Origin: Psammoneis japonica | Lineage: Eukaryota | Direction of reading: 5' to 3' | DNA: 37,675 nucleotides | NCBI GenBank assembly: GCA_008632985.1 | Contig: QPGO01000055.1 | Coordinates: 186,001-223,675, forward strand | Shown: positions 10,815 to 37,675 of the stretch, one piece after another | Position numbering within the stretch: position 1 is the first letter of the stretch | Layout: each line of letters starts with the position of its first letter | The notes under the pieces: generated by a model | Seen by the model: only the letters and a program-made list of their open reading frames with translations | What the model was told of the DNA's origin: nothing | Database searches by the model: none | Position numbers and translations under genes: made by a program

Positions 10815-11650
10815 AATCATGCCCTCTATTGCCTTACAATACTCACTAGTAGGTGCTCTGCCATACCGCAGAAGTGTTCGACCTGGTATGTTCCCATGTC
10901 CCGATGCTGCTGTTTGTATTCTTCGTCCTGTGGTATCTCACACTCTAGGGCCCTAGTTGTTCCTTTTGAGGCGTCAGACCAAGGCTTATTTGGAGCTAGG
11001 AGAAGCCTTCGTGAAGGCTCGGAAAGAAGTGAGTAAGAATGATGAATTTCCGAGTCGCGTTTTCGAGCCGCCCGGAACGCCACGATCGAAGAGCGAGATC
11101 CAGACGTTGCTTACACAGAAAAGACTGATCGATTGGGAAGGAAGGCTTTCCTCTACGTACGGGATTGATGGAGAATGCAGAAATAATTTTGTCGAAGAAT
11201 AATTTATTTGCTCCCGACGACTGCGCGCAAACAAGACGTGATCGAAATCTTGGCAATGCCTGTTTTAAACGATGGTGACCCGTAGTGCAGATGCGACGAC
11301 GATAACAAAACGAACAGAGGGCCAACGGAGAACGAGTTTCTTGAGGCATTTTGATCACAAGTTGAAAAGGCGGACTCTTGACAGGTGGTGGTTTCAGGTC
11401 TTTTTGTTCAATGTTGCCAGACGATAGACAAGCGTGTTAGCAAATGTGTTTAAATTGAAACGACTTCGCTCTACAATACGTCATGATTGTGGCATTTAAA
11501 GCACAGGCAAAGCAACGGTGCTCTGGACGCCTATTACCTTACCAGAACCTCTACTAGAGCTAGTATTTCTACTCAAGAAGTAGCAGAGCGCAGAAACGAT
11601 TACGTATTACGGTAAGCTCTATGCTAACTACTAACCACCGTAACTGCTGG

Positions 11651-11785
11651 TCCGGTGGAAATTCTTGCGACAAGGGGAAGTTCTGGCCAAACTGCGATTT
11701 GGAAATTCTTGCGGCAAAATCCGGTGGAAATTCTTGCGAAAAGGGGATTCGGCGAGAAATTCTGGCCAAACTGCGATTTGGAAAT
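11651..11785. repeat. Short imperfect direct repeat (two ~65-bp units) upstream of the small zinc-finger gene
   Basis: tccggtggaaattcttgcga..aagggga..ttctggccaaactgcgatttggaaat occurs at 11651 and 11720; the sub-motif ggaaattcttgcg occurs three times. Confidence 0.85.
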
Positions 11786-11982
11786 ATTGTTCCTGGGCAA
11801 TGACAGGAATCAGGAATCTTCCTACGGTAGCAAGCGTGCTGCCTAAAGAGCGATGCGCTCGGTGCGCGGTGCGGCCACCATGGGCAGCATGGCCTTCAAT
11901 CCCGCGGCGCGTTGCTTCAAGAGCAAGGGAAAGCACGAGTAAAAAGCAAAACACAAAACGAACAACATACCCCTCGTTCACC

Positions 11983-12312
11983 ATGTCAAAGACGGATGGA
12001 AAGTTTGATACAGAACCCGAAATTGCTGTAACCGCAGAAGCGGTACCAGCGGGAGGAGGTCAACAGGCAGGCAGCATCCCACCCGGGCATTCCCGCTTTT
12101 ATTGTGAAAAGTGCCGTGCGGTATGTTTTGGCTGTGTATTTCGAATTGCTGTATTGTACGCTGAAAGTAAACTTACCTTTATTCATTCTTTTTTATGAAC
12201 GTAATTGCAGCCATATGACTTACCAAACAAGGCCACAAGTTGGAGATGCTCAAACTGCTCGACTTTCAATTCGATTACTCCGGGAGAATGCGAATGGTGT
12301 TCTATCTTGTAG
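11983..12312 (+). CDS. 79-aa cysteine-rich zinc-finger protein with C-terminal CaaX (CSIL). Exons 11983-12120 and 12211-12312
   Basis: ATG in ccATG context; phase-0 intron GTATGT(12121)..TTGCAG(12210). The spliced product ends ..FYCEKCRAPYDLPNKATSWRCSNCSTFNSITPGECEWCSIL* (TAG 12310-12312). Confidence 0.85.
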
Positions 12313-12738
12313 AACGTTAACGACGTTTTGTCGTTTGTGGGTTCATTTGTTGAAAGGGCTTATTAGTACTTTGAGACTGTAGTTGATATGTTTGGTTTGA
12401 AGCAACCGTGTTCATGACCGTTTAAACTGGAGATACGGGAAAACGCGAAACAGAAGTGTGCAGTTTGCGTAGCGCTTTTATGCTAGAGAGTGGGATGGTT
12501 GAAGTATGGGCGGTGTGGTTGTCCGTTGTAGGAATTCAGCCCCCCTTTTTTAGCTGATTCTGTTATCGCGATATACTGTGTTTTCTTCAACTGTGATCTG
12601 TGATCTCTTTGTGAGTTTGCCTCGAAGGCTGGACTGCACTAACCGTTCATTCACAGTCACGAAATATTACAGATACCAGTATTGCTTTGACTAGCTTTAT
12701 CCTCGCCTCATTAGATATTTATGCTGATTTACACACCA

Positions 12739-13621
12739 TTATTCTTTCTGCTCTTGTGCCTTGGGCGAAGGTTCGTCAACAAAGTCCGCCTTGATTTTTC
12801 GTCCCAAATGCCAAGCAGAACTTCCAAAGAGAGCCACATTGACACTACAGAGCGTGTAATTGATTGGCGTCACCAAGAGTGCATAACGAGAAAAGAAAAA
12901 TCCCGTCAGAGTCAAGGCCGTGTACTGCGCCAGAGAAATCTTGTCTGTGGGGCGATTTAAATCCAAAAAGCTCGCGCCCGAAATGAACCATTTCTGTAAG
13001 AAGCATAGCAGAGAAGTGTAAGACTCAATAGCTAAGATAAAATAACAAATTATCAAACACAATAGGCAGGCTCACACTCATTGGTGCCCAGAAATGAACC
13101 GTAAAGGGTCCTGCATCGGCTGCAGCCACGGTAGAAATAACGCCCAAGTTGGCCTTGACTAGTGCGCTCTGGAGTGCAGGCCCGAGCGCGATACAACCCA
13201 AACCACCCACAGCGGCCATAGCTGCCTTTTCGGTAATTTCCTTTACTTGTTCTTCTTGGCCGGTTTGGTTTTTGTATTCCAGGGCACGACGCATTTGATT
13301 GGTTTGAGCCACAACGTTGGTGGCATGACAGGCTGCCAGAAGGAGGTTCTGAGGCTTCACAACCAGGGCCCACCGGCAAAACAGAGATGAATACACTATA
13401 AGAACACCAGTCATGTTAAGACTAATGATTTCAGGACCCTGTAAGGCCGCATCGTAAATGGCTGCGCCAGACATTCCCCATCCAGCCACCGCACCGCAGG
13501 CTCCCCAGAATTCAGCAGAATGCCACCAGCCTTTCTTTGCCTCTCCAGAAGAAGCCCATCGGCGATAAATAACCTGGCGAGAGCGCGCCAATGTCGCTGT
13601 CGATGCGCGAGAATACATCAT
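12739..13621 (-). CDS. MPC: Mitochondrial pyruvate carrier, tandem MPC1-like + MPC2-like single polypeptide (~266 aa). Exons 13621-13076 and 12993-12739
   Basis: Arg/Ser/Ala-rich presequence-like N-terminus (MMYSRASTATLARSRQVIYRRWAS). Domain 1: HSAEFWG..WG..AAIYD..PEIISLNMT..YSSLFCRWALVVKPQNLLLAACHATN (MPC1-like). Domain 2: AGPFTVHFWAPMS|KWFISGASFLDLNRPTDKIS..RYALLVTPINYTLCSVN (MPC2-like). Phase-0 intron GTGAG..TTACAG at 13075-12994. Confidence 0.92.
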
Positions 13622-14625
13622 GGTGGCTTTCGCTTCCTGAAGCAGAAAAAAAAATAACATAGGCCATACATGAGAAAAGAGAAAACGATTGGCAGCGCGC
13701 GCGCAGATGGCAGGTGGGCTGGCAGGTTCAACGCAGTTCAACAGGATGGACGGCGGCAGCGATGCGCGAAAGGCAGGACACGCGCGAGGAGAGCTCATCG
13801 ATGATGGGCGAGAAGAAGTTGGAGCGACGCCCCAGCAGCGAGCTCTTGTCTCGATGTTGCTGCCTCTTGTGGTTGCAATGCCAGTGGCTTGCCAGAGCTG
13901 TAGATGGTGCAATTCTCCCATCCCACCCACTGGTTTGGTTCTGGCTCTGGGCTCAGGCGGCCCCGGCCGATGTTGGAGAGCTTGGCGAGGGCTTGCTGGA
14001 GCTTGGGTGGGTGTCCCCAAAACCGCCACCTTCGATCTCCCACCTCAAAGACCACTGCACTGGTTGTAGGAACAGATGCATCAGACCAGCTTCAAAGCAT
14101 CTTTGGGATGGAGGTGCACGAGGTGCCAGGTGCTCTGCGAAGGGAGCCATTTCGTGCCGACCATCGGCGAAAACAAAAAAATTGTGTTGAGTTCATTGGC
14201 GCAACTGTTTGCATCATAAATTTCATGTTCATGGCTGAAGCTCAAACAAACAAGAAAGAGGAAAACAAAAATGGCAATGGCTTTCATCGGCCATGTCGGC
14301 CCCCTCTTTTGACTTTTGATGAGTTGAAGGGCATCATGAGGACCACAGCATTTGGCACAATTGATGTGCAAGCCATGCATGACAGCTGGCGATTGTTGCA
14401 GTCTGCGGCGCACTTGTGTGCTTCACCATGGTGACTGCTGCTTTCAGAGGCAACAGCCAGCCTCCCTTTGCAACCAATGGAGACCTGGACATTTAAAAAA
14501 CGGGGGACAGCCAGCGCACCTCGTGCAGGAAAAATCGAAAAGAAAACACAAAACATCAAAAGACACACAACATCAAGCAGTTGCAAGAAAGTCAGTTGAC
14601 AAACAACCTTGTCAGAGACAATGAG

Positions 14626-15031
14626 GACGGGTTCCAGTCCCAGCAGGTGGGATGTTTTGTGACATTCGGCCCGCAGAATTCTGCGTGCGAGCTCTGCAGT
14701 GCGAGAATTTAATCAATGCATGTTTTTGTCTTCAACATCAAATGAACGGCCAAGTTTGTAGTGCATTCATGCCTGTCCATGCTCAAAGTTTTCAGCAATC
14801 CGCCTGCCCTGCGCCATTCTTAAGATGTTTGCAAATGGCGCAGAAGAAAAAATGTCAAAAGTTGTTGAATGGATCGCCCAACAATTGCACTGCAAAATGA
14901 CACAAAATTCCACCAAAGTCACGCATGAATGATGCACTTGCGCAACATACGACGCGATCCAAAAAACTGCTGGGAGTGTCGATGTCACAGTTCAGCAGTG
15001 CGAGGTCCCACCTCCAGAGCTGGAATGCGTC
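14626..15031. mobile_element. Non-autonomous TIR element (MITE family A, copy 1, ~406 bp)
   Basis: Ends GACGGGTTCCAG..AGGTGGGA and TCCCACCT..CTGGAATGCGTC. Flanks TGAG (14622-14625) and CGAG (15032-15035) are a 4-bp TSD with one CpG transition. Colinear with 22685-22827 plus 25555-25804. Confidence 0.85.
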
Positions 15032-15035
15032 CGAG

Positions 15036-18000
15036 GTCAAAACGACTGCTGCATTGGAAATGCAAAGAAACAGTCATCAGCATTTCGCACTTGCGCCACA
15101 GGCTTGTGCACAAAATTGGCCTGGAGCCCAAAGGCAAGCCACATGTCATGTGCTTGTTCCACCATTTCAAAAGGATGAGTTGGCCATTTGTGACATCGCC
15201 GGTGCAATCTCTTTGTTTTTCCTGCTTGCACGTGACATTTGCACTCCCCCAACAACAAGAGGGCGGCCAAGACAAGCATGACAATGCTTGCCACCAACAT
15301 GAACGAGCACCCCTGCAATTGTGGTGAACCCCACTTGTCATCATGAAGCCTGCTCCGCCACCCACCACACCCATGCTCAACACCCATTCCAGTGCCGACT
15401 CAACCACCAACTGCACCATCATGCATGCCATCTGCAATGCAGAGTGATGTGCCCTCACATGTGCCAACCACGACTCCATCATCTGTGCCAAGCAGTGCAC
15501 CATTGTTGACAATGTTGGACACAGAAGATTGCTTGGAAACATGACCTTCGATCCATGGCAATGTCCAAATTCTTAACAAAGCACAAAGCCTGCTCCACAT
15601 GTCATGCATGGGACAATTGTGCTCCAAGCACAAAAGACAAATCAAGGCACATGGTTGCCACTTGCGCTGCTGCATCTTCCCAATGGCACGGGTCCGCTGA
15701 TGTGATTGCTGTTTCTGAGACAAGCCAGCTGGCATCAATGTGCAACAAATGAGTCGTCTCCACCGTGTGCCACACTGCAAGTGCACAATCTCTCTGCTGC
15801 AAAATGGCACACAAGTCATCAACCAACGCTCCATCTTTGTGGAGAACATGATCTCTGTGGCAGATGAAGCTGGGTTCTGATGTGTCATGCAGCAACAATG
15901 CAGCTGCCAGGATGAGACTGATGCAACAAACTGACAGTCATGGAGGTGACGCTGTTTTTTTTTTTTTAATCAGAATGTTGTGAATTTCTGTGCACCATGT
16001 GCTCTGTCCCACATTTTTTAAATGGCCAGGTCTCCATTTGACACCAAGCACCATGATTTCTTTTCCTTTGTCATGCAAGCCATTTTCCAGCTGTTGACTG
16101 GTGCAAGAGTTTCAGTCATTGACACCAAGAAAGCAGCAAAGAAGGGTCCAAAAAGTTCATGCCGTTGCAGTGCTGATGTTTTTCTTGATTCATCTGTTGT
16201 GCAATTTGTTGCCCAACGAGCATGCGGTGAAATGGCAAAACTGTTGAATTGCAAGCATCAAAATGCATGTGCAAAAACCACTCATTGTGTGCACCACATT
16301 GCAAAATTTACACAAAAGAACACTCATGTGTGTCACATGTCAGCACACTTGTGCAAACACAAATTGCTTGAGGAAAAATTGAGCTCTCATCTTGCACCAC
16401 CATTTGGCAACAACGGGTCCAAAATCAATCTTCAGAAACAATGATGTGGGCACACAAACGAGACTTTTCTGCATGTTGTCATGTCTGAATGTTTGAATGT
16501 CTCTGATTTTTCACTGCAAAAAATTGCACCACAAGTTTGGGCCATTTGTTTCATGTGCAACAATCTGGAGCAGCACTGCCAGATGATCCAGACAGGATGA
16601 GCTGTGATTTCTGCTGCAACTGGTGCTGGACAGAAACAACAGCAAAACTTCATTTTCTGCTTTGTGCTCAGCCCAGTCATGAGTGTTTTTGGCCCAGGAA
16701 GTTGCCCCTGATTGTCTTGGAATGGAGGGCATTGGGGGTCGTCTTTGATGTTGTGCATGAAAGCCCAGCTGACAGCGCCATTGCATCAATCCTGCTGCCA
16801 TGTGCATTGTGCATTTGAGCATCTTGCTTGCATTTTGTGAGGACATTTTTGCTTGTCTCCACACACAAACACACTCAATCATGGGTTTCTGTTGTCGTGC
16901 AATGCATCCTCATGGCTTGTGCATGTCTGGAATGTGGCCATTGCACTGGGACAAGCCTGCTGCATCACAACTCTCTTTGGTGCAGCAATGTGCACAGGCT
17001 GGTGTGGGCCAAGATTGGCTTTCTCCAACAACAATGTCAATCACTGTGTTGACATCACAAAAAAGAATTCCCCTTGCAGCGAAACTTGCACTGTGGCTGT
17101 GCAATCTTGAAAATTTGCTGAAAAGTCACTCTGAGCTCATTGCACTGCTGCAAGCTGCAGCAGCAACCTTGTTCTTCACAATGCTGTGAACAAAGTTGAG
17201 CTCAAAATCAAGAACACATCAGCACATCTTGAAGGTCTTGACCATGTTGTAAAGTGAAGCTGGCCCAAATTCATGGCCCCTCTCTGTGTCTTCTGTGTGC
17301 CCACTGTTGCTTGACCATGCAGCATTTTTTGCAATGGACCACATGACATTTTTTAAATGGCCCCTTTTTTGTGCATGTGACAGGCTGAGGTTTTGGCACT
17401 TGCCTGTGGAGGATGCCAAAAGGTGCAGAGTTTCTTTTCCCTGGTGGCTTCTCCTGCCAGTTCATCATGGCTCATTTTCTTCAGCCCTCCATGGCTGGGA
17501 CTCCACTGGCCTGCAGAATTCTGCCTGTGAGCTCTGCAGTTTGCACACTGGGCAACAAATCTGTTTGTCTTCCAAATCTGGACAAATGGCCAAGTTTGCA
17601 GAGCAGCCTCTTTGTGCTCCCAATTTTTGAAAATTTGCCTGCACAGCACCATTCTGAGCACATTTGTGAATGGCTTTGCATGCAAAAGATGTCAAAAATT
17701 GTTCAACAGATTGCCCAAAATGGCCGCACTGTAAAGTGAAGCAAAGTGCTGCCAACGTCACACACAGAAATGTGTGCACACAACATGCAGCAAAAGACAA
17801 ACAAGGGGCACAAATGTTGCAGCCAAGCAGGGTGAGGTGCACCCAGCAGAGCTGGAGCACATCACCTTCTGTGGCAAAGTTTGCAAGGTCTGGCTCATTT
17901 GACTTTGCAGATGATGTGCCAAGACCTGTGTTTGTTGGCATTTCAGGTGGCACAACCACTTGATGGGCTTGCAGTTGCAAAAAGACATTGAGCAGACATG

Positions 18001-21000
18001 TGTGCCGGGCCAGATCTTGATCTCAGTGGAGCTGATTTTGCACAAAGGGCTCATCCAATGGATGGAGGATCATCATTCAAAGCTTCTGTGACCAGCAAGT
18101 TGATTTGAATTGAGCTCATGGTTCCTGACAAAGCTGAGCTTGGCTCCAGCACATTGTGGTTGAGAGCTCAGATGAGCAGGGAGAAAACTCACTGCTGGGA
18201 CATGCTCTTGTTGCCCCTGCTGTTGATGGGCTTTCCACCTCATGACTTGTTTTGCATGAGATTTTTTGATTTTTTGGGTTGTGTTTTGCACATTTTAGCC
18301 AGCCCATTGTTCTCCCCTCTGTTGGCATCTTGGATGCATCAGAGAGGTGAAAAGGGGGGTCATGAATCATGGCCTTAATTTTCTGCGTGGACTTGGTGAG
18401 CGTGCGCCATCATTCATTGAGTTGACCCCTCTCTGGCTGAAGTGCATGGTCACTTGTTGGCAGTTGACCTTTGTTCATTTGTTTTTGATCTCTTTGTTTG
18501 TCTTGCATGTGACAACTGCCTCACAACAAATTGCATTTGTGACGCACATTGTGGCTTGAGTGCCGGCCATTGCACACCTGACCCCATCATTCATTGGCTG
18601 AAATCTCAGCTGCTTTTGTTTGGCAGAACAATCTTCGCTTCTGTTCAGTGATGTTTTTATGACTGCAAGCAACATTTCATGTCAATGGGAAGGGCAACTT
18701 GACCACAACTCAACTTGGTGCACTGCATTTGCCAGCTTTTGTTGAATTTCCTTTGTCCAACCCCCCCCTCCCCCAACTTGGTCCCAGCAGCAATCTTGCC
18801 CCACAAACTTTTCATTTTTGTGTTTCCTCTTGAGATGACAAGGCAAGATTCAAATGGCCTTTGCACAGTTGATTGATGTGCCAGCAGCCTGCATGGTGCC
18901 TTGCACTCATCACAGTGCATCTCACTTTGCCACCATCATGGCTGCATGCTGCACCCCCCCCCCCCCCCAAAAAAAAATGTCTCTGACCCCATCGACAAAT
19001 CTTCTGAAGGTGGGGATGGCAGCATTGAAGAGGATGATTCACTTCATGAGGATGAAGTGGAGTTGGGTTCCTTTCATGTGGAGTTGCAGCACAAAGCTGG
19101 CAGCATGGATTTGCTTTTGGAGATGATGAGTCTGGAGATCAAGGCCCATGTGGTGCCAGTGGGGACAGGAACAACTGTGATGTGCTGGTGCTTGGTTTGT
19201 TTTCCTGTTTTCGTCATCATGTCAACTTGATCATTTTCTGTTGATGTTCATCAGCTCTTGAGCACAACAATGATGAGATGGTGTTTGTGAGTGGCAGCAG
19301 CCACCATTGCAATGCAAAAGATTGGTTCAAAAGGACCACAGAAGTGCAGAAGACAAGGAGGTCTTTCCTTGCCTGCCATGAGCAGAGCCCAAGCCCTGAC
19401 TTTCTTGCACTGCCCTGTCTGCCGCAAAACCCCAAGAGAGGAATGCGCCGCTGTTTTGAGCAAGTGATTGCCATGAACAACACAACCAACAAATCCTTGG
19501 GATGCCAATGTGGGACTGCAAATCCCATGGTTGGATCTGCAAGCTGGAAAAGATGAAGGGAAATTTTGCTGGGCAGTTTGTTGTCCAGTGCCAGAAAGCT
19601 GCCAAGCCCTTTGACAACCTCCATGCTGTGGCAAGAGTTTTCAAGCCATGGTGGATTGTGTGCACAAGTTTGTCGAGCCCAAGTGCATCTGCAGCTGCAC
19701 AACTTCTCTTCAAAAGAATGGTTGCATTGCCAGCACCAATTTTCTTGCACAGACACTGAGCATTGCCATCTCCACAGTTGAGGCTCTCTTCTGCCATGTG
19801 TCACCAATGAAGAGACAGTTGCTGCTGCTGGTGCAAGTTGGTCTTTTTTCAATGTTCAAAGCCAAAGACTTTTCTCCTCACCATTGCCAACAATCTTCTG
19901 CAAGTTGCCTGTGCCGAAGCTAAAAGTTCTGTCTGGCAATGTCACAAAGAGCCTGTTGAAGCAAGGGCTGGGTGCCATTGAGGGTGCTGTTGCGTGCAGA
20001 GCACATGGTTGAAAAAGAACATCTCAGTGTCACAAGCTTGTGGAAGAGCAGATGTGCACAATGTTCCTTGGGACTTGCAAGAATCTCCAACAGAAAAAAT
20101 GAACAATCTTGCAACAGCCTGCTCCAGGGTTTGTGACTTGACCTGCTGATGCCTGAAGCCCAAGGAGAAAAAATGTTTGCCTCTTTGATGTGGATTGGTG
20201 TCAAGAGCAAAGGCAGAAAGATGGGCATTTTCCCAGCTTTGTCTTTTTTTCTCACGTGCCATTTCCCTTTTTGCTTGTCTCCTTTGTTCCTTTCACATTT
20301 TTTGGAAATGAGGTTCTCTGCCCCTGCTGCATGAACAAACATGGAGGGCGCACACTCTCCTTCCCTTTGCAACTGTGGTCCTTCTTCCAGCCCCGGGGCC
20401 AAATTCCCCACCCTCTCTCAACTTGTGCAGAACCTGGACAACAACAATGATGATGTGCCTGTTGCTGGCAATGAGTCCAGTGCCTTGTGGTGGCAGTTTG
20501 TTCTGAAGAGCCATCACAGGCATCCATTGCACTGGATGATGCTGATGTTTGGTTCCCACATGATTGTCAACACCCTTTCTCAACCCTGCAAGATGACCTT
20601 GCCAAGGTGGCTCCTTCTGTTCACACATTTTATGATGGGGTCGACAAAGATGGTGACATTGACAAAGATGCCAATGACCACAAGCTCATTTTTTGTCACT
20701 TGCCTTTGAACTTCCACCTGCTTGTGGACCTCCATGTTCTGACACATTCCTTTGAGTCTGCAGAGCCACTTCCCAAATCCAATGTGGCATGATTGGGAGC
20801 TGAGCAAGGTCTCTCCCAGAGCAACCAAGATTGCACCTGGTCAAACCACACTTTGTTCTGATGACAAGCTGTTCAAGAAGCATTTTTCTGGTCTCAAGTT
20901 TCATTTTGAAGAAGTTGCCCACTTTGTTGTGGAGCAGGGCACCATCAGCAATGAGGGAAGAGATGACAAAGTGGTCAAATTTCTGGAAGCCAACTCTCAA

Positions 21001-21844
21001 GCTGATTTCAGATGACAGCACATCAGAGCCATCCCCCTTGCATGGACTTGACATTTTTGAAACCAACAACAACAAAGAATCTCTTCTCCAAATGAAGGCC
21101 TTGACAGCCAACGCCTTTGATTGCACACAGCTTTGTCAGGACAAATTGTGAGTTGAGTGCTTTGATTTGTCACCATCGTGCAATTGTGAGGAGTGCTGCA
21201 CCCACAAGTTTGGTGAAAGAGCAAGGGAGAAACTTGGCATGGAGTTCACCAGAAACAAGAATTTTGCTCTCCAGCCAAAAAGACATGTTCCTTTTCTGCA
21301 TCATGCATGGTGTGTGTTGTCGAAGATGGGAATCAGAACGTCATTTTCTTCCTCTGTCATGGGGAGCTGGCATGAACAACGCTGCTGCCATTCATGCACA
21401 CACACTCCCCAGATGCCAATGAGATTGCATCTGCAGCAGAAAGAACCCCAGTGGCTGCAGACTCATTTGTGCAGTGGTCATGAGAAGCCCACAGAAGTCA
21501 GCAAACACACTGCTTGTTGGCATGCCCAAACACAGCATGACAGTCAACAGCACCAAGAAATCCAGCACAGTCATCAAAACAAGCACTGTTTTGCAGTTGT
21601 GTGACCACACTCTCATCTTGGCTGACATTGTGGCCATCAATCTACAAACAATCAGCCCCGTGGTGGGAGATGCGGTGTTTTTTGTTGCTCTGAGCATTGC
21701 ATGGGATCGCGGCGCAACTTTAAAATGTGTCACGTCATGCACCATGACAATGCTCAGCTCAGTGTGCAGAACATGGGGTGGTGATGTGCAAACCTCAAGC
21801 AACCTGGAGGTGGTGGCTGTCCAACCCACTCAAAGCAACCCAGG
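15036..21844. other. Heavily decayed, TpA- and CpG-depleted sequence, presumed transposon relics; no identifiable intact gene
   Basis: TA and CG are almost absent and TG/CA are abundant. All six frames are full of Cys/His/Met/Gln-rich, nearly Tyr-free short ORFs. The stretch hosts MITE insertions. Confidence 0.6.
17473..17863. mobile_element. Old diverged relative of MITE family A (left end approximate)
   Basis: Blocks colinear with 14626-15031: ggcctgcagaattctgcctgtgagctctgcagt, ggccaagtttgcagagca, gcctgcacagcaccattct, atgtcaaaaattgttcaacagattgcccaa, and terminal gaggtgcacccagcagagctggagcacatc. Confidence 0.7.
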
Positions 21845-22030: not shown

Positions 22031-22827
22031 TCCTTGTTGTCCAGCTCCATGTTCTCCGTCCAACATGAGTGGTCGTGTAAAGAAAAAACGCCCATCTTCT
22101 TCATCATCACGATCACCCGCTGTTCCCAAGCGTCCTCGACATGATGTGCCCGCGGTGACGGAACCAGAGGGTTTGGAGTGCTCCAAGTGCAATGCATGGA
22201 TGCCAAAGATGCTGGGAACGCATTTCACAATTGGTTGTTTGAGAAAACATGGGATTTGTGTTGAATGCTTTGCGAGAGCATGCAGCGGTCTAGGAAAACA
22301 CAACAAACTGACATGCCCAAAGTGTGGCACCCTTTGTGCCAAGCATCAGAGCCATTCACTCAAATGCACTCTACAAGATGGAAAAGTGCGAATGCAAAGA
22401 AAGATGTCCATCCATGAAATGGCACAACCTGGCAAGAAGAGGGACTTCATTCGATGCTTTGAAACCGCACTCAAAAATCAAACTGGCTTGGCTGGTCTTG
22501 CCTTGGTCGGATGGAAAGACAGTGGCAAGCTTGATCTGCAAACTGTCATTGTTCCAAAAGACAATCCTTCAGAAATGGGAGACACCAATCAAAAGGATTT
22601 TTTCAAGCTGGTGAAACGTCTTCATTCAATTGTGGTCTACAGCGACTCGAACAAGACTCGGCGATGCGACCCGACGGCACACCCGACGGGTTCCAGTCCC
22701 AGGTGGGACTCTGTGTGACATTGGGCCCGTAGAATTCTACGTGCGAGCTCCGCAGTGCTAGAATTTAATCAATGGATGTGTTTGTCTTCAACATCAAAAA
22801 ATGAACTGCCAAGTTTGTGGTGCAATT

Positions 22828-25550
22828 AAGACTGGCCACATAAAAAGGTGCTGACGCGCGCTCTCGAGCTCTCAAAATTTGTTTCGAGAAAATGGCACTT
22901 GCAAGATTTTTTGAGCGACATCAAACAATTAAAGCATTGGCGTGAAACATTGCACAAAATTTGTGTGCACACAAGGACTGCCATCAATTTTTATTTGCGT
23001 CCCTCTCCGAAAGAACTGCACTGGCTTTGGCGGTTTTCTTTTTCTTATTTCGCGCCATCTGCTCAGCGCTCTCCGCCTGCTTGTTCTTCCGCTTCTCTCT
23101 CTTGCTTTTCGCAACGCGATTGAGGACGTCGTCTCCAGGATGAGGGCACATCTCGTCTTGGTCTGCCTCATCAAGAAGCGGCCGACACTTGGCACAAAGC
23201 TCGACCTTCTTGACATCCTTGACACCTGGAGCTGTCAAGGCAAGTGGTTGTGACGTTTGCAAGTTCTGTTTTCATTGCTCGCTCGATTCTGTCTTCCTCT
23301 TCTTGAGATCCTCGCCAACTTCTGGCTCACCGTCCGCTGCTTTCATTGTCACTGCCGCAGGTTCCGAAGAATCTGTCACTTCAAAGCAGTGGTGCTTCGC
23401 AACTGCGCTGCACTTCTTGCAATGTTGGTCAAAATGCGCTCCATGCCCCACAAAATCCTCCTCCTTCGCTTCAACGACCTGAACGCATTCGGAGGTGTCC
23501 AAGGCTGTCAAGAGTTTGCGGAACGTGCCGATGTTCTTGTCACGGTGAGTTTGCTTGAGGCTGTTGAAGAGCCTGTCACAGGCATTCTTGGTGTGCCCTT
23601 TTGTCAAAAAAATGATGCTCACTTCTTTGAAATGTCCTTGTTCCACCAGGCAAGAAGCAAGTCTCAACACCGTGTTGTTTTTGTTTTGCCCGATGCAGTT
23701 GTCAAAAATCAATGCGAGCTTTCTGCCTGGACCCTTGCTGATGTCCAACAATCCACCATCATGCAAGTGCTTCATCACAAGGGAAGCAACATTGTCACCT
23801 CCCTTTTGGCCAGTGCCCTCATGGCAGACGCGTGCATGCAAAAAATCCTTGAACTCATCTTCCGTCACCGTCACAACTTTTTTCCCCGCAGGATCGGCAA
23901 CCCCAAACATGTTGATCGTCAAAGGAGAGAAGCAGTGCATCTCCCCTGGCTGATCCGCCCCAAAATGTGGAAGCCCACCATTTTGACAACAGTCACCAAT
24001 CCTTGCGTAAGTTCGCTCGCCGTGTGCCTTGTCAGCTTTTGCGTGTTCTGTCGCTTCCGAAATGTGCTGTTGCACGAGTGTCCGTTGCTTTCGAGCCCAC
24101 TCGACGTGCTTTGCGGCGTGCAATGTTTCATTTTCCTGTTCTTCAATCTCTTTCATTCTCACCTCTGCATCTGCTCCATCTTCTTCATCATCATCGCTCT
24201 CCTCCTCCTCATCCTCGTCGTCGTCGCTCTCACCCCCCGTCTTTTCTTTCATCGCTTTCATCCTGAAGCTGTTTGCGAACTTGTGGCATTCGTCGCAGAT
24301 GTCACGAGTGGGCCTTCTCACGACAATTTCAGGACAGTTCTTTTTCCAGAACTTGCAAAATTGTGCCCAGGAGCATGTTGGTTGCTGGTCTTCTCCTTCG
24401 ATTGGTTCCGCCTTAAGAAACTTGCCTTTGTGGTTCGACCCAAGGGTCCAACCATTTTCTTGTCCGCACCGTTTGCACAATCCACGCTTTTTCACGGTGG
24501 GAGGTGAGTCGCACGTGTCTTCATCTCTCAAGCCGACACCTGTCTCTTCTCTAACCAGTCTCGTTGCACGTGGCTCAGAAAGTTCCTTTGTGTCATCAAA
24601 ACATGCATGAAGGGCTGCACACATTTCGGGTGCAAGCGTCTTGTTCGCGTTCTGCCCAGTCTTCCCTTTGAGACCATGTTGCGGAAAGACATTGCTCTTT
24701 GCACTCAACTTGGCGGTTCTCCAGAACTTTCTCCCTTTGCCTGGCAATGCAAGGAGGGCACTGCAGCAGACCAGATGATCGTCCGGCGGCGTCCCCTCCT
24801 CCGCCTCCTCCTCGTCGTTGTTGTCAGTTTTCAACAGCGGCAAAACAAAGCAGCGACAATCACCCTTGCATGCATGCTTCTGAATGAAAGTGGAACATCC
24901 AATCCAGGATGTAAAAGTGGCATGTGTTTCTGTGCACCCCAGTCTTTCAAAGTGCACGAGGTGGTTGCTCAACATTTTCACGACGGAGGTGTCGTTGTTC
25001 TCCAACATTGCTCTCAGCTTCTGCAGACACTGACATTTCGCAGGTTTCTTTGCAGTCACCTGGGTGCAATGTTCATGGAAAATGGGAGACTCGTTAGGGT
25101 CGGAAAGCCAATCGCAGAACTTTTCTGCCGCCTCATCGTCCTTGACGCCTTTGGTCAGTTTCGGCCACGCCATTTTTTTTGTGACGCTTTTGCTTTTGCT
25201 CTTGTTGCCTCCACCAAGAGAATTTCAAATTCGAGCCTTGTGTCAAGTGCTCAATGATTTGTGTGGACTTGTGTAATCTTAAAAATCACATGCTTTTGTG
25301 CAACTTGTGTGCGTGACTTTCTTGGCATGTCATTTCGCACAATTCCTCAACGGTCAAAACACTCACAGCAAACAATTCAAGCCGTTAATTTAGTTCATGG
25401 CTAATGAAATGTCAAGGAAGCATTGCCAGCCATTGACACATACATCGCTGAAGAGCTGAGATCAAGAGCTTTCGATCGGTGTCCACACCTCAAAATCGAC
25501 CATACGAGCTATTTCGAGCTCCGTTGGCACCTTTCTATGTGGCCAGTCTT
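22828..25550 (-). mobile_element. Sola1-type DNA transposon, copy 1 (2723 bp)
   Basis: 24-bp TIR AAGACTGGCCACATA(A/G)AAAGGTGC. TSD AATT at 22824-22827 and 25551-25554 fits the AWWT target of Sola1. The paralogous empty site is visible in MITE copy 1 at ~14761-14774 (gtgcattcatgcct). Confidence 0.92.
22984..25173 (-). pseudogene. Sola-type DDD transposase (~730 codons) with a premature TGA at 23272-23274
   Basis: Motifs PTRDICDEC, IGDCCQN..LPHFGADQPGE..FSPL, IFDNCIGQNKNN and FLTKGHTKNACDRLF. The stop is CGA in copy 2 (CpG transition). Only one Tyr remains. Confidence 0.9.
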
Positions 25551-25838
25551 AATTATGCCTCTTGCCACTCGACGTTTCTGCAAATGCGCCTGCCCTACGC
25601 GATTCTTAAGACATTATAGAATCGCGCTGTAACAAAAAATGTCAAAAGTTGTTGGACGGATCGCTCAATAAGTGTACCGTAAAATGACACAAAATGTCGA
25701 AAAAATCACGTAGAAATCTACGTGCGCGACATACGACGTGATTCAAAAAACTATCGATGTCACAGTTCAGTAGTACGAGGTCCCACCTAGACCTGGAACG
25801 CGTCACCCTGCTGATCGCGCACTTGCAGATCTTGCAAA

Positions 25839-26754
25839 GACTTGTTCCAGACTTAGGTGGCGCGCACATGCCCCTTTTCGCAGAAAAAATAATTTTTTAA
25901 TGCTTTATTCAACACCATACATATTTAATAAAATTGATCATATAAATGGCTTCTAAGTAAAATAAACAGAATAAACTCGAACAAACAAACAGCCAAACCG
26001 ACCATGGCTTTCAGTGACCATGACGGCCCACTTTTTTCAGCCTTATGGAAAATTGAATGTCATGACCAGGATCTCCGTATTTGATATAGTCTGTGTCATC
26101 AACAACAATAGTGAAAATGCTTGTTGAAGGCTGCAGCGCGGCACAATAATGCTAAATCTGTCAGCAACAACAATTGAGCCTCTATTCACTCACAATTTGC
26201 CTCTAAGGACCATTTCTTTTCTATTACCATGTATATTTCCTCAATATATTCGACTGATTCAAGTGTATCAATCGTTTATGCCTTTTAAACCGTGAAAAAT
26301 GGTCCGAAGTCGACGCCATTGCGTGGGCTGAGCTACACTTCTTCTCATGTCGTCCTAAACTTATTAATCAACGTATGCTTTATTCGATCCGTTGAGTGTA
26401 ACTCGTATTTACGTATATAAACAAAATATTAATTATGCTATGTTAAAGACTTAATTTATATATATTAATTTTATTTTATATGTTTCTTGTTACATTAAGG
26501 CATATATAAATCGCTCATCGGAAAATTCGAGCTCTCAACTTACGGTACAATTTAGCGACTAACAACCGAGTCCATCAACAGTTTCGAATACATGGGTACA
26601 CGCACAAGACAATTCTGTATGTACCCATAACAACACATTTGTAAATTGTTATGTTTTTACTCTATCGAAAATGGTACCGCAAGTGTGGACCGCGCGTTTC
26701 ATGCAAAAAGGGTCATTTTTTCGCGCGTGAGTGCACCCAAGTCTGGAACAAGTC
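25839..26754. mobile_element. Non-autonomous TIR element (MITE family B, 916 bp, AT-rich)
   Basis: 21-bp TIR GACTTGTTCCAGACTT(A/G)GGTG; TSD CAAA at 25835-25838 and 26755-26758. Its excision restores the host transposase frame. Confidence 0.92.
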
Positions 26755-31265: not shown

Positions 31266-34070
31266 GATGTTGGGGTTCTTGGTTTGCCAAAATCAGGTGA
31301 TTTTGCCAAATCCAACCAGTCATCCACCCATGTTGTTGACAATCCACCATTGGACAGCCCCACACAACTTTTGTTTCCAACAAATGCAGCTCTTATGGAA
31401 AGGATTCATTGCTCTTGCATTGAGCATTTTGTGGATTGTGTGCAAGGGATTGCAAGCAGCTTTGACAACATGGTTGGTTTGTTGTCCTCAAACTCATGCT
31501 GTGCAAGCTGGGCATGCTGCAGCAGCGGCTGCATTGGTGTGGAAAGAACAGACATTGCTGACACTCACTTGGTTGAAAAATTCTCATGTGGTGCCAGAGT
31601 TGTCACAGAGTGCAATGAGCTCAAGAGAGGTTTCATCTGCCAAGGTGAAGCTGTGCTCCATCAACAAAGAGAAAGTGTCCTCATGTGGAACAGATGACTC
31701 AGGTGATGATGCAGAGCTCTCTTCATTCTTGGATCCCAAAGCATGAGAATTGTCAGCACCTGGAAACATTTCACACTTCGCACAGACAGGCACCATTGTC
31801 TTTTTTGTCTTCTTCTTTGGACTGAGAGCCACCTTGGTCACATTCATTGTTGTCCAAGCTGTGAGATGCATCATCCTGCAAATCCATGTCAGGAAAATCA
31901 CACAAGCCTTCTGCCTCTTTGCCAAGAGGCTCAAGGCTGCCATGGGGGAACCAGCACCAGCAGCACCAGCAGAAGTTTTGTGGGGAGTGCTGACACCATC
32001 ACACGCAAGTCACAGGATGATGGAGACAATGCCTCAAGCTCCCTTTGGCAATGAAGAAGCAGAGCTGCAGCATGGGACAGCACACCCAAATCAGCTGAAG
32101 ATGCATCTGCACAACTGGCGGCATTGGGCCTGCAGCCCATGGTGATGACAGCAATGACAATTCATGCATTGCCGTTGAAGTGGGAGGGGGGGCAAGATTG
32201 GCACAAATGAGCGGGAACTTGTTCAAAGTGACTGTGCCAATTTGCTTGAATTTTGTTTGTTGAGCAAGTGCTGGCATTGACCAAAAAAAAATGTGGCTTG
32301 CCAATGGAAATGCAGACAGAGCAAGAAAGGCAGTGTCAAGGGTGTTTGTCATTTCTGGAGTGCACACATTCAGCAATGCACAGCTGTGTTTTCCAGATCA
32401 GAAGGAGCGGTGTGTGGGAAATCAGATTTGCAATGGTCAACCCAGCCAGACATGTGTGACATCACCGCACAACCCACGACCATCACCACAGCTTTGCAAA
32501 AAAAAAAACACCACACAAAAAACAATGGCAACAAAAACATGACAACCACAGCACAGAAGCAAATCAACCTGGCCAAGTGAATGGCCAACAAGGACAAGAA
32601 CAAAACCCAAATTCTTTGTTTCAAAGTGCTGCTGTGCACTTCCAACCTGCAGCTCCGGCAACAAGCTGACTCACACCCCCAGCACATTGTGTGATGCAGC
32701 AGGGATTTGCAACAACCAGTCAAGATTGATGCCACAAGGCTGTGGTGCCCACCAGCAACAGCTGGCAGCAACAAAAACAGGACCTGCAAAGTTGGACTTC
32801 AAAAGCAAGTGCTTGGCACTGCAGCAAGGCCTTCTTCTTGGGATCAGATCTGGTGGCTGAGACAAAATGGGCAGTCTGGAAAAGTTTCAGAATGAGGAAG
32901 AGCAGGACACAAATTGACCACCAAGTCATGCCAAGCTGGTTTCAAATTCAGACTTTTGGGAGCAGCAAAAATGGAGAGCTGTTTGCTGCATGGAGCAGAG
33001 AACTTGAAAGGACAGCTGGTGGGAGGGGAGTCATTGATGCCAGAGATGAATGAACTGAGAGCAGTCAACAGTTTGTCAAGTCAATCATCTGAAATGACCT
33101 TCAAGACACAAGGAAAATGTGCTGCAACTCATGTGGATTTGTTGGCACATGGAAGAAAAGCCAACGCATGCTGAATTGGTCTAAAATGCAAACTCTTTAG
33201 AGCAGCAACAATGGAAGATTGTTGGCCACCTGAAGTGGGGAACGTGAGTTGACAACAGGCAGGAGGGGGGGGGTGTTGACACTTGAGAGGTGTGCAGATG
33301 GAGCAGTCAACAGTTTGGCAAGTTGTCCATCTGGAATGACTTGCAGAACACACAGAATTTGGGCTGAAACTTGTGTGGAAACTTTGCACATGAGCAGAAA
33401 AAATGCAGAGAAGAAAGCCAAGCAAACAAGCCAAAAAGGCTCAACAGTGCCAGCCATGTTCCACTGCATTGGATTGCCAATGATCACAGAACAAAGGCAC
33501 ACCAACAAAGAAATGGTCTGAATGGGCAGGTGGAAACCATTGTCACATCATTGGAGAAAGGCAATGTCTTGCGCAAACAAACATGCAGAAGGTGTGGCTG
33601 TGAAACCAAGGCAAAATTGTGGCCGATTGGGACAAGGGGCTGGGCCATGACATGATCAAGGCAAGAGACCACATTAAAGAAAAATGTGCATGACACTGGT
33701 GTTTGATGCAAGGCAAACACAGGAAGTGGGCATGCTGTGCAAAGACTGTGCCCAGAACTGTGGGCTTGCACTGATGGACAGGATGCTTTCAGAGCTTGCA
33801 GAGGTGCAACAAACTTCACACCTGCAGCTCCCATGGACAAAAATGAAACAAGGCAGGTTGCGTCAGGAGTGGCCAGTGCTGAAGTGATCCAATGCTTGTC
33901 AGGCTCAGCAGGACAGATTTTGCAGAAAGTGTGCAAGTGTGCATGACACATGTCACCAGCAGGTGGTCAGAAACACTGACGTTGTTGTTGTGTCTTACAT
34001 GGCTGCGCAGGGCTTTGTGCTTGCTGCAAAAAAAATTGCATCTTGCCATTGCAACAACAACTCCAGGAGC
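31266..34070. other. Heavily decayed TpA/CpG-depleted presumed transposon sequence
   Basis: TA and CG vanish abruptly right after the TIR; only fragmentary Tyr-free ORFs remain. Confidence 0.6.
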
Positions 34071-34074
34071 ATTT

Positions 34075-36797
34075 AAGACTGGCCACATGAAAAGGTGCTG
34101 ACGCGCGCTCTCGAGCTCTCAAAATTTGTTTCGAGAAAATGGCACTTGCAAGATTTTTGAGCGATGTCAAACAATTAAAGTGTTGACATAAAACATTGCA
34201 CAAAATTCATGTGCACACAAGGACTGCCACCAATTTTTATTTGCGTCCCTCTCCGAAAGAACTGCACTGGCTTTGGCGGTTTTCTTTTTCTTGTTTCGCG
34301 CCATCTGCTCAGCGCTCTCCACCTGCTTGTTCTTCCGCTTCTCTCTCTTGCTTTTCGCAACGCGATTGAGGACGTCGTCTCCAGGATGAGGGCACATCTT
34401 GTCTTGGTCTGCCTTGTCAAGAAGCGGCCGACACTTGGCACAAAGCTCGACCTTCTTGACATCCTTGACACCTGGAGCTGTCAAGGCAAGTGGTTGTGAC
34501 GTTTGCAAGTTCTGTTTTCGTTGCTCGCTCGATTCTGTCTTCCTCTTCTTGAGATCCTCGCTAACTTCTGGCTCGCCGTCCGCTGCTTTCATTGTTGCTG
34601 CCGCAGGTTCCGAAGAATCTGTCACTTCAAAGCAGTGGTGCTTCGCAACTGTGCTGCACTTCTTGTGATGTTGGTCAAAATGCACTCCATGCCCCACAAA
34701 ATCCTCCTCCTTCGCTTCAACGACCTGAACGCACTCGGAGGTGTCCAAGGCTGTCAAGAGTTTGCGGAACGTGCCGATGTTCTTGTCACGGCAAGTTTGC
34801 TTGAGGCTGTTGAAGAGCCTGTCACAGGCATTCTTGGTGTGCCCTTTTGTCAAAAAAACAATGCTCACTTCTTTGAAACATCCTTGTTCCACCAGGTGAG
34901 AAGCAAGTCTCAATGCCGTGTTGTTTTTGTTTTGCCCGATGCAGTTGTCAAAAATCAATGCGAGCTTTCCGCCTGGACCCTCACTGACATCCAACAATCC
35001 ACCATCATGTGAGTGCTTCATCACAAGGGAAGCAACATTGTCACCTCCCTTTTGGCCAGCACCCTCATGGCAGACGCATGCATGCAAAAAATCCTTGAAC
35101 TCATCTTCCGTCACCGTCACAACTTTTTTCCCCGCAGGATTGGCAACCCCAAACATGTTGATCGTCAAAGGAGAGAAGTGGTGCGTCTCCCCTGGCTGAT
35201 CCGCCCCAAAATGTGGAAGCCCACCATTTTGACAACAGTCACCAATCCTTGCGTAAGTTCGCTCGCCGTGTGCCTTGTCGGCTTTTGCGTGTTCCATCGC
35301 TTCCGAAATGTGCTGTTGCACGAGTGTCCGTTGCTTTCGAGCCCACTCGACGTGCTTTGCGGCGTGTGATGTTTCATTTTCCTGTTCTTCAATCTCTTTC
35401 ATTCTCACCTCTGCATCTGCTCCATCTTCTTCATCATCATCGCTCTCCTCCTCCTCATCCTCGTCGTCGTCGCTCTCACCCCCCGTCTTTTCTTTCATCG
35501 CTTTCATCCTGAAGCCATTTGTGAACTTGTGGCATTCGTCGCAGATGTCACGAGTGGGCCTTCTCACGACAATTTCAGGACAGTTCTTTTTCCAGAACTT
35601 GCAAAATTGTGCCCAGGAGCACATTGGTTGCTGGTCTTCTCCTTCGATTGGTTCCGCCTTAAGAAACTTGCCTTTGTGGTTCGATTTGAGGGTCCAACCA
35701 TTTTCTTGTCCGCACCGTTTGTGTGATCCACGCTTTTTCACGGTGGGAGGCAAGTCGTGTGTGTCTTCATCTCTCAAGCCGACACCTGTCTCTTCTCTAA
35801 CCAGTCTCATTGCACGTGGCTCAGAAAGTTCCTTCATGTCATCAAAACATGCGTGAAGGGCTGCATGCATTTCGGGTGCAAGCGTCTTGTTCGCGTTCTG
35901 CCCAGTCTTCCCTTTGAGACCATGTTGCGGAAAGACACTGCTCTTTGCACTCAACTTGGCGGTTCTCCAGAACTTTCTCCCTTTGCCTGGCAATGCAAGG
36001 AGGGCACTGCAGCAGACCAGATGATCGTCCGGCGGCGTCCCCTCCTCCGCCTCCTCCTCGTCGTTGTCGTCAGTTTTCAACAGCGGCAAAAACAAAGCAG
36101 CGACAATCACCCTTGCATGCGTGCTTCTGAATGAAAGTAGAATGTTTGATCCAGGATGTAAAAGCAGCATGTGTTTCTGTGCACTCCAGTCTTTCAAAGC
36201 ACACGAGGCAGCTGCTCAACATTTTCACGATGGAGGTGTCGTTGTTCTCCAACATTGCTCTTAGCTTCTGCAGACACTGACATTTCGCAGGTTTCTTTGT
36301 GGTTGCCTGGATGCAATGTTCATGGAAAATGGGGGACTCGCCAGGGTCGGAAAGCCAATCGCAGAACTTTTCTGCCGCCTCATCGTCCTTGACGCCTTTG
36401 GTCAGTTTCAGCCGCGCCATTTTTTTTGTGACGCTTTTGCTTTTGCTCTTGTTGCCTCCACCAAGAGAATTTCAAATTCGAACCTTATGTCAAGTGCTCA
36501 ACAATTTGTGCAGACTTGCACAATCTTAAAAATCATGTGCTTTTGTGCAACTTGTGTGCGTGACTTTCTTGGCATGTCATTTCGCGCAATTCCTCAACGG
36601 TCAAAACACTCACAGTGAACAATTCAAGCCGTTAATTTAGTTTGTGGCCAACAAAATGTCAAGGAAGCATTGCCAGCCATTGACACATGCATCGCTGAAG
36701 AGCTGAGATCAAGAGCTTTCAATCAGCATCCACACCTCAAAATCGACCACACGAGCTGTTTCGAGCTCCGTTGGCACCTTTCCATGTGGCCAGTCTT
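34075..36797 (-). mobile_element. Sola1-type DNA transposon, copy 2 (2723 bp)
   Basis: Colinear with copy 1 (offset 11246-11247). TIRs AAGACTGGCCACATG(A/G)AAAGGTGC. Left TSD ATTT (34071-34074), right GTTT (36798-36801). Flanks differ from copy 1. Confidence 0.92.
34167..36420 (-). pseudogene. Sola-type transposase, copy 2, with a +1 frameshift at ~36090 and read-through of the copy-1 stop position
   Basis: ATG at 36420 (MARLKLTKG). cggcAAAAAc versus cggcAAAAc in copy 1 splits it into ORFs 36070-36420 and 34167-36197. Same catalytic motifs as copy 1. Confidence 0.9.
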
Positions 36798-36801
36798 GTT
36801 T

Positions 36802-37675
36802 GTTGAACCTGACATTGCATGTGGTGTTCTGCAGCCACCTGTTGAAACTGGTGCCAGAGAGAATTGTTGGAAAAAAGAGCCTGTCTGATGACACAAAGAT
36901 GGGCACATTGTGTGCTGAAGCATTTGCCCACATGCTGCTGAAGAACAACTTTGATGCATGGCATGCAGAGCACAAGAGCAACAGCAAGGACAGTGCTTTG
37001 GTGCCAGACTGTGTGATGCGGAGGTTGACAATGAAGGCAACCCCACCAGAAGGAAGGGCTTGTGTGAATTTGTTGTGCCAGAACTGGCAGTTGCAGAGCA
37101 CAAGGATGCCAACAACGGCTTGAGCACATTCACATTGTTGGAAAAAGGCCCAGGAGAGCCTGCAGAACAAGGAGTGGTGCAGGAGCCAATGAACAAGTTC
37201 AAGGAGGAGAGGGAGAAGTCTTGCAAGAGTCACAACAAGAACATCAAGAAGGTGCAAGTGGAGCAGAAGACACAGGAGCACATGTCCATTTTGATGGAAG
37301 TCACCAATGAACTGGAGAGCAGCACAAGGGGCTGCCAGGCAAGGAATGTGGTGCCAAGAAGAAAATGTGCATGAGATGACTGAAGCACTTTGCAGCAAGG
37401 AAATCCAGCAGAGCAGGGGAAGGTGCAGCCAGAAGATGATGCAAGACACCCAGGAAGAGCAGGGGGGCAGTCACCACAGGCAAACAAGTTCTTCAAGGAG
37501 CTGGGTTTGGAGATCAAACAACATGTTGCAAGTGAACAACCAGGCCAGCAGGAGGACATGTTTGAGAAGATTGCACAGCAAGCTGCAGAAAGCAACAGGA
37601 GGGTGGGAACAACAAGTCCAACAGCAAAGGCAAGCATGTGGTGGACTGTGCTGAGGTGCACAAACTGAAGTTGAT
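36802..37675 (+). pseudogene. Decayed coding relic, probably a transposon accessory ORF, into which Sola copy 2 inserted
   Basis: Frameshifted protein-like fragments EAFAHMLLKNNFDAW, KFKEEREK..KKVQVEQK and GGQSPQANKFFKELGLEIK. TA is essentially absent. Confidence 0.4.

Follow-up and report, generated by a model that had tools for sequence, protein, structure and literature searches.

Target-site duplications of Sola1-like transposons in the diatom Psammoneis japonica carry A:T to G:C changes at TpA sites, most of them created by insertion

The stretch of DNA considered here, called the window below, is the whole of positions 186,001 to 223,675 of Psammoneis japonica contig QPGO01000055.1 (assembly GCA_008632985.1), 37,675 nt in all, and coordinates are given on it. 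It holds two copies of a 2,723-bp Sola1-like DNA transposon, each with 29-bp terminal inverted repeats (TIRs), and our subject is the target-site duplication (TSD) of copy 2. The left junction of that copy reads ...GGAGC-ATTT-AAGACTGG and the right junction (36790-36801) reads CCAGTCTT-GTTT, with G at 36798, while the left junction and both copy 1 junctions are unchanged, all as described in an earlier reading made from the letters alone (the sequence-only reading). That reading proposed that the first A of the right TSD copy had become G only where the insertion had set a T before it, thereby creating a TpA. Across the genome, mismatches between the TSD copies of this group of transposons lie at TpA only, and at 36798 an allele that lacks the insertion has the A.

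The long frame of copy 2 found 14 homologues in a protein search, all without names, and contains the motifs DNCxGQNKN and GHT...DRxF, which would fit the catalytic motifs of Sola. Passages of PMC3845634 describe Sola1 as a TIR element of about 2.7 kb with a single long open reading frame (ORF) and short non-autonomous copies, whose target is 4 bp long with AWWT or AWDT preferred. Similarly, the TIRs here flank one transposase ORF, the TSD is 4 bp long, and the A-n-n-T target fits that preference; compared with it, the inferred targets are AnnT in 22/23 insertions and strictly AWWT in 14/23 (a hand count). As a difference from Sola1, the termini here are AAG...CTT, so that an AnnT target gives a new TpA at both junctions. 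The host base that borders the TSD is C at 29/46 ends and T at 6/46, and the C-rich outer base suggests either a wider YAnnTR target or an earlier loss of TpA in host DNA. Non-autonomous derivatives of families A and B, about 300 bp long, were also seen (C2, C11, C29, C39, C103, C105, C116, C225, C393, C3:870452, C12:804815 and C266).

Table 1. Features of the window that bear on the altered duplication (a slash marks the junction between host and element)
Feature	Position	Strand	Remarks
Sola1-like DNA transposon, copy 2, 2,723 bp	34075..36797	-	TSD ATTT on the left, GTTT on the right
Copy 1 of the same Sola1-like element	22828..25550	-	Both junctions TTAA, unchanged
TSD of copy 1, AATT	22824-22827 and 25551-25554		Identical at both ends
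Left TIR of copy 2, starts AAG	34075..34103	+	Inverted-repeat pair
Right TIR of copy 2, ends CTT	36769..36797	+	Supplies the T of the new TpA
Transposase open frame, 682 codons	34167..36215	-	DUF7869 (PF25273), E=2e-19
Left TSD copy, ATTT	34071..34074	+	First A in CpA and last T in a TTAA junction formed with the element, neither of them changed
Right TSD copy, GTTT	36798..36801	+	Ancestral A at 36798 now G, in the context TT[A]T made by insertion
Old dispersed host repeat, insertion site of copy 2	33570..37300 (flanks 33570-34074, 36798-37300)		Nearly without TpA or CpG
Unrelated inverted-repeat element, ends AT/G...C/AT without TpA	14479..16035		Negative control for errors of junction position

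Matches to the host repeat elsewhere in the genome number 40, with 71-83% identity. Three of its relatives (L057, L062 and L066) cross the insertion site of copy 2, and on them the two flanks overlap by 4 bases, hence the length given for the duplication. As a guide to the ancestral base such relatives proved too divergent, with ATTT, GTTT, AATT, GATT and others at 11 loci of 72-77% identity. The ancestral base was read from short reads (run X1), in which one contig links 34071 directly to 36799; 3 letters are common to both sides, the short side has 27, and the depth is 27.4 against 74.3 and 67.4 for the flank contigs. This contig has the shape of an empty allele, c-ATTT-g. Since a perfect duplication would share 4 letters, the first base of the empty allele would differ from that of the right copy, and a start of the right-flank contig at 36799 rather than 36798, as observed, is expected where two alleles differ at 36798. 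The flank contigs (279 + 275 = 554 bases) show zero substitutions. The A is thus ancestral and the G at 36798 derived and real; the change sits at the insertion-created TpA on the right only, as had been proposed, and the empty allele keeps its A in a CpA context. Run X1 may derive from the same material as the assembly and so checks the base without adding an independent sample. Copy 2 is probably a young insertion and still heterozygous.

Pattern, DNA and protein searches of the genome gave three related families, all with AAG...CTT ends, and 28 two-ended insertions, from which the 23 with a recognisable duplication were analysed and their 184 TSD bases pooled. Single ends whose partner was not found were left uncounted (C3a, C12a, C196, C132, C400, C37, C105b and C290); C400 and C189 have flank in common. 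The 23 insertions hold 12 mismatches, all of them A>G or T>C at TpA: 12/54 TpA bases had changed, compared with 0/112 other A/T bases (Fisher p=5.6e-7) and 0/18 G/C bases. The dependence on a 5' T that the sequence-only reading drew from a single site is therefore general in these families. The survey of TSD mismatches which that reading called for placed 10 of the 12 at junction-created TpA, always in the copy touching the element, and its own caution about a single event was justified, in that the base at 36798 carries modest weight by itself and is now joined by the mismatches of the whole survey. As rates, junction-created TpA had changed in 10/45 cases and TpA already present in the target in 2/9. 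The first 19 pairs gave 8/8 mismatches at junction TpA in the copy adjoining the element; the third family gave 4 in 4 pairs, 2 at junction TpA and 2 at TpA that predated the insertion (ATAT>ACAT; ACCT+A>GCCC+A). The outer TSD base is A at 44/46 ends, and no matching TSD pair starts with G or ends in C. The 45 junctions comprise 25 TA, 10 CA, 9 TG, 1 TC and 0 CG, the 9 TG being changed at the terminal base of the element (T/G). None had changed at both bases, which fits a first change that abolishes the target.

When junction context is read from outside as N-T/A-A, the neighbours matter. TTAA junctions were lost in 1/17 cases and other TAA junctions (VTAA) in 18/27 (p=9.9e-5, one transversion left out), and insertions with one junction of each kind kept TTAA and lost VTAA in 10 cases, the reverse in 0, kept both in 3 and lost both in 1 (p=0.002). 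Sites inside three heavily mutated copies follow the same order of retention by context as the junctions, with VTAB kept at 6/105, TTAB at 10/54, VTAA at 17/60 and TTAA at 13/27. The protection of TTAA accounts for the three window junctions that are unchanged, whereas the altered one, TT[A]T on the + strand, holds an unprotected A. These unchanged junctions had been offered by the sequence-only reading as an internal control, and unchanged they are, but TT/AA is likewise an insertion-created TpA, kept through its context. Location matters too, since unprotected (VTAA) junctions were lost in 14/16 cases at TpA-poor flanks and in 3/10 at others (p=0.0085). The mutated domain has a sharp edge at the right end of copy 1, where the observed/expected ratio (O/E) of TpA is back to 0.8-0.9 in the adjoining 25551-26500 and a TpA 5 bases from the junction is intact. 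Three less-mutated copies elsewhere (C14:66238-68935, C96:87696-90417 and C107:17042-19763; L136-L138) keep 29-30 of 31 TpA sites in the terminal 300 bp on the promoter side, and 0-2 of 6-15 sites per 300 bp in the transposase body, and erasure seems to start in the body and to reach the ends later. Family C has a weaker form of this body-before-ends loss.

Within the elements TpA has been erased almost entirely by transitions. Of the 138 substitutions that separate copy 1 from copy 2, 136 are transitions, many of them in TG/CA doublets, and with the majority of 7 full-length copies as reference copy 2 has TG or CA at 112/128 inferred TpA sites (55 TG, 57 CA) and zero transversions. At 18/57 of the sites lost in both window copies the two are resolved in opposite directions, so those losses were independent. 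Transversions number 17 in 18,879 aligned bases, none of them in copies 1 and 2, and the background of A>G/T>C outside TpA is low (28 of 8,113). Such non-TpA changes are slightly raised beside a TpA (5 of 378, p=0.014), and runs such as TTTA>CCCA and TAA>TGG occur at copy 1 24439-24442 and 24899-24901 and at similar sites; these clustered changes resemble bystander editing by a processive enzyme. In the window TpA loss is confined to mobile DNA and host genes are spared, with a TpA O/E of 0.03-0.13 at 34001-37000 and of 0.39-0.79 in the gene-rich 1-13500 (VPS13 and MPC genes). The MPC gene has at least 120 homologues, of which the 4 that carry a name come from diatoms. TpA loss runs far ahead of CpG decay. 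Young Sola copies keep a CpG O/E near 0.7-1.0, and in older repeat blocks (16001-21500 and 31501-34000) CpG is depleted as well as TpA (CpG O/E 0.04-0.23).

The unrelated inverted-repeat element of Table 1 belongs to a family whose ends make no TpA. Its AT/G is intact at 13/14 ends, so closeness to a junction does not suffice for change. The family (that element and 13 other ends in the genome) has GGAGACCTGG termini and appears to have inserted into A-AT-T with duplication of AT. Its interpretation as an element with a TA duplication resolved to TG and CA was ruled out, because AATG/G is also found at TpA-rich copies.

The explanation that best covers these results, to which we give a probability of about 0.85, is that a TpA-dependent A:T>G:C process acting on chromosomal DNA altered the A of the right TSD copy after insertion. 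The element would have inserted at an A-T-T-T target and duplicated it, and its terminal T together with the first base of the right copy would have formed a new TpA. A process restricted to repeats, which would turn TpA into TpG or CpA (A:T to G:C on either strand, one event per site), would then have altered the A:T pair of this TpA in the chromosome. The TSD base of a cut-and-paste element is host DNA and passes through neither RNA nor a donor copy; a change at that base therefore cannot stem from RNA editing with reverse transcription, from inheritance, from gene conversion or from codon selection. The earlier claim of a change in situ after transposition accordingly stands as regards DNA, and for the family also as regards timing, while the base at 36798 taken alone could date from gap repair at insertion.

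Several points weigh against this account. The empty allele is one short contig from one run and could be the product of precise excision; it exists for the 36798 site only, and at the other sites where copies differ the ancestral base was assumed to be A/T. Five of the 28 pairs were dropped for want of a recognisable TSD (C2, C103, C156, C105c and C107c), C105c perhaps having an ATAT target that slipped by one base. The strict advance prediction, that mismatches of the third family would be at junctions only, held in 2/4, compared with 4/4 for the TpA rule. An A>C transversion stands at one junction (C393) and two additional A at another (C107), some of the terminal T/G changes may be inherited from donors, and internal TTAA was lost at 14/27 sites compared with the single loss among 17 at junctions. 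Lastly, the genome has 5 MafB19-type deaminase matches, an ordinary-looking set with no expansion, which singles out no enzyme.

Among the alternatives, the one that survives best keeps the in-situ process at TpA and changes its chemistry: either T is modified (to 5hmU or 5fU, followed by T>C) or the repeats are copied by an error-prone, eta-type polymerase. The claim about the site is common to this alternative and to the explanation preferred above, and that the chemistry is something other than A deamination we rate as a serious possibility somewhat short of even odds. Sequence by itself cannot tell which base, A or T, was attacked, and the excess of A>G/T>C beside TpA fits bystander deamination and a W[A] polymerase signature equally well. 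The scarcity of transversions speaks against this chemistry, as does a TpA specificity that is nearly absolute and tighter than the signatures we associate with polymerase eta. Our own guess, held at slightly better than even, is A-to-inosine deamination by a TadA/ADAT-type enzyme, with the inosine fixed as G at replication; it draws on what Mettrop et al. proposed and on the preference for TA shown by editors derived from TadA, both taken up below.

A change at the moment of insertion is improbable. DDE/DDD transposition leaves a single-stranded gap at the joined target strand, and this strand, exposed over 4 bases, could have been deaminated or miscopied before fill-in; in keeping with this, 10/10 junction mismatches affect the base to which the element end was joined, and this is the exposed one. 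The 9 junctions altered at the terminal base of the element instead, with never both bases changed, do not fit, and neither do the 2 mismatches at pre-existing TpA. Loss moreover follows the TpA depletion of the flanks and the TTAA rule of internal sites, and the family without junction TpA is almost unchanged at its ends.

CpG decay on the left is more improbable still. The target would have been GTTT, the left c-GTTT would have decayed from CG to CA, and the G on the right would be original. A C does precede the left TSD copy, the flanks have a CpG O/E of 0.06-0.14, the relatives L057 and L062 have C-G at the insertion site, and C stands before the partner's A in 6/10 junction mismatches. 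The empty allele reads c-A, however, the outer TSD base is A at nearly all ends with no matching pair beginning in G or ending in C, and C precedes the TSD at most ends in any case. Since such decay is impossible for 4/10 mismatches (C11, C371, C393 and C214), it is refuted as a general account. An assembly error or an ordinary random point mutation, which a single base beside a T run at a long-repeat junction might suggest, is scarcely credible given the short-read contig boundary at 36799, the 3-letter overlap at the empty-site joint, the 554 flank bases free of substitutions and the family-wide pattern.

Returning to the TpA-dependent process, we infer that its chromosomal targets are silenced repeat domains and that it serves to defend against transposons. 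The MafB19-deam matches include a TadA-like protein, a TadA/ADAT2-like frame, a duplicated dCMP-deaminase-like protein and a deaminase that shares its frame with a 2OG-Fe(II) oxygenase; contigs C26, C38 and C79 carry the TadA/ADAT2-like candidates. The frame shared with the oxygenase (L166:319-1791, - strand, contig C79) is a single one, possibly with introns, in which a zinc deaminase domain precedes DIOX_N and 2OG-Fe(II) oxygenase domains, and the dCMP-deaminase-like frames at C41:506240 and C317:55685 are identical, through duplication or an uncollapsed haplotype. A Tet_JBP search gave no match in the genome and none in any control genome either, and is uninformative. One could go further and imagine a 'reverse RIP' in diatoms, named after fungal repeat-induced point mutation (RIP): a natural adenine base editor of DNA whose targets are domains of silenced chromatin and not particular sequences, quick enough to have changed the TpA of a still-heterozygous insertion, reaching adjoining host bases, and shared by descent with the chlorarachniophyte system discussed below as an old defence of the SAR lineage. 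This wider picture is unlikely as a whole, though worth stating.

To our knowledge, defensive A-to-G editing of chromosomal DNA has not been established for any natural enzyme. The present analysis contributes a test across whole families with internal controls, together with an empty allele, as proof of context-dependent editing at the level of DNA. Transposon ends which build a TpA at a known moment amount to a dated and paired assay. From it come a motif, the protection of TTAA, and a domain effect, which can serve as yardsticks for candidate enzymes. In this genome, annotation based on TSDs and the dating of repeats are biased by the TpA process.

The process is published only for one unrelated alga, the chlorarachniophyte Bigelowiella natans, in one preprint, and our literature search, which most subscription papers lay beyond, found no paper on it in diatoms. 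The preprint describes TpA hypermutation of integrated viral DNA, in which A>G and T>C changes arise in DNA at TpA alone, affect either strand and are confined to foreign or mobile sequence (Mettrop et al., bioRxiv 10.64898/2026.01.13.699255). It further describes TE domains as enriched among TpA-poor sequences, proposes an A-deaminase with an ADAT2/3-like candidate, and reports de novo change in mutation-accumulation lines at a rate raised about 1000-fold, in some lines only. The process in P. japonica appears to work in the same way: A:T>G:C is limited to TpA, the outcomes are TpG and CpA, mobile DNA is affected, and the substrate is chromosomal DNA rather than an RNA intermediate. The match is one of signature, and a shared enzyme is a candidate only. 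As far as the available text of the preprint goes, the B. natans case comprises two virus-derived regions that are still TpA-rich, whereas here, in a diatom, young multicopy DNA transposons are affected and so are the host bases that adjoin them, with near-complete erasure of TpA and a neighbour rule that protects TTAA. The main text of the preprint does not contain the words diatom, stramenopile, target site, TSD, flanking or trinucleotide, and on that text the choice of targets and the relevant neighbours are left unsettled.

Adenine base editors derived from TadA leave a comparable mark, the off-target signature of ABE8e being A>G/T>C on DNA with TA preferred (passages of PMC13225742). ABE8e is engineered and, as described there, is not targeted to repeats, and it resembles the process here in signature only. 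Fungal RIP, which involves homology sensing and a trigger in the sexual stage, changes C to T at CpA, creating TpA, acts on both strands and disables transposons. It has been summarised as dinucleotide-specific transition mutagenesis of repeats in place (in bioRxiv 10.64898/2026.01.13.699255), and here too repeats are mutated in place, by dinucleotide-specific transitions on both strands. The direction characteristic of RIP is nevertheless reversed in P. japonica, where A goes to G, as fixed by the empty allele, and TpA is lost rather than gained.
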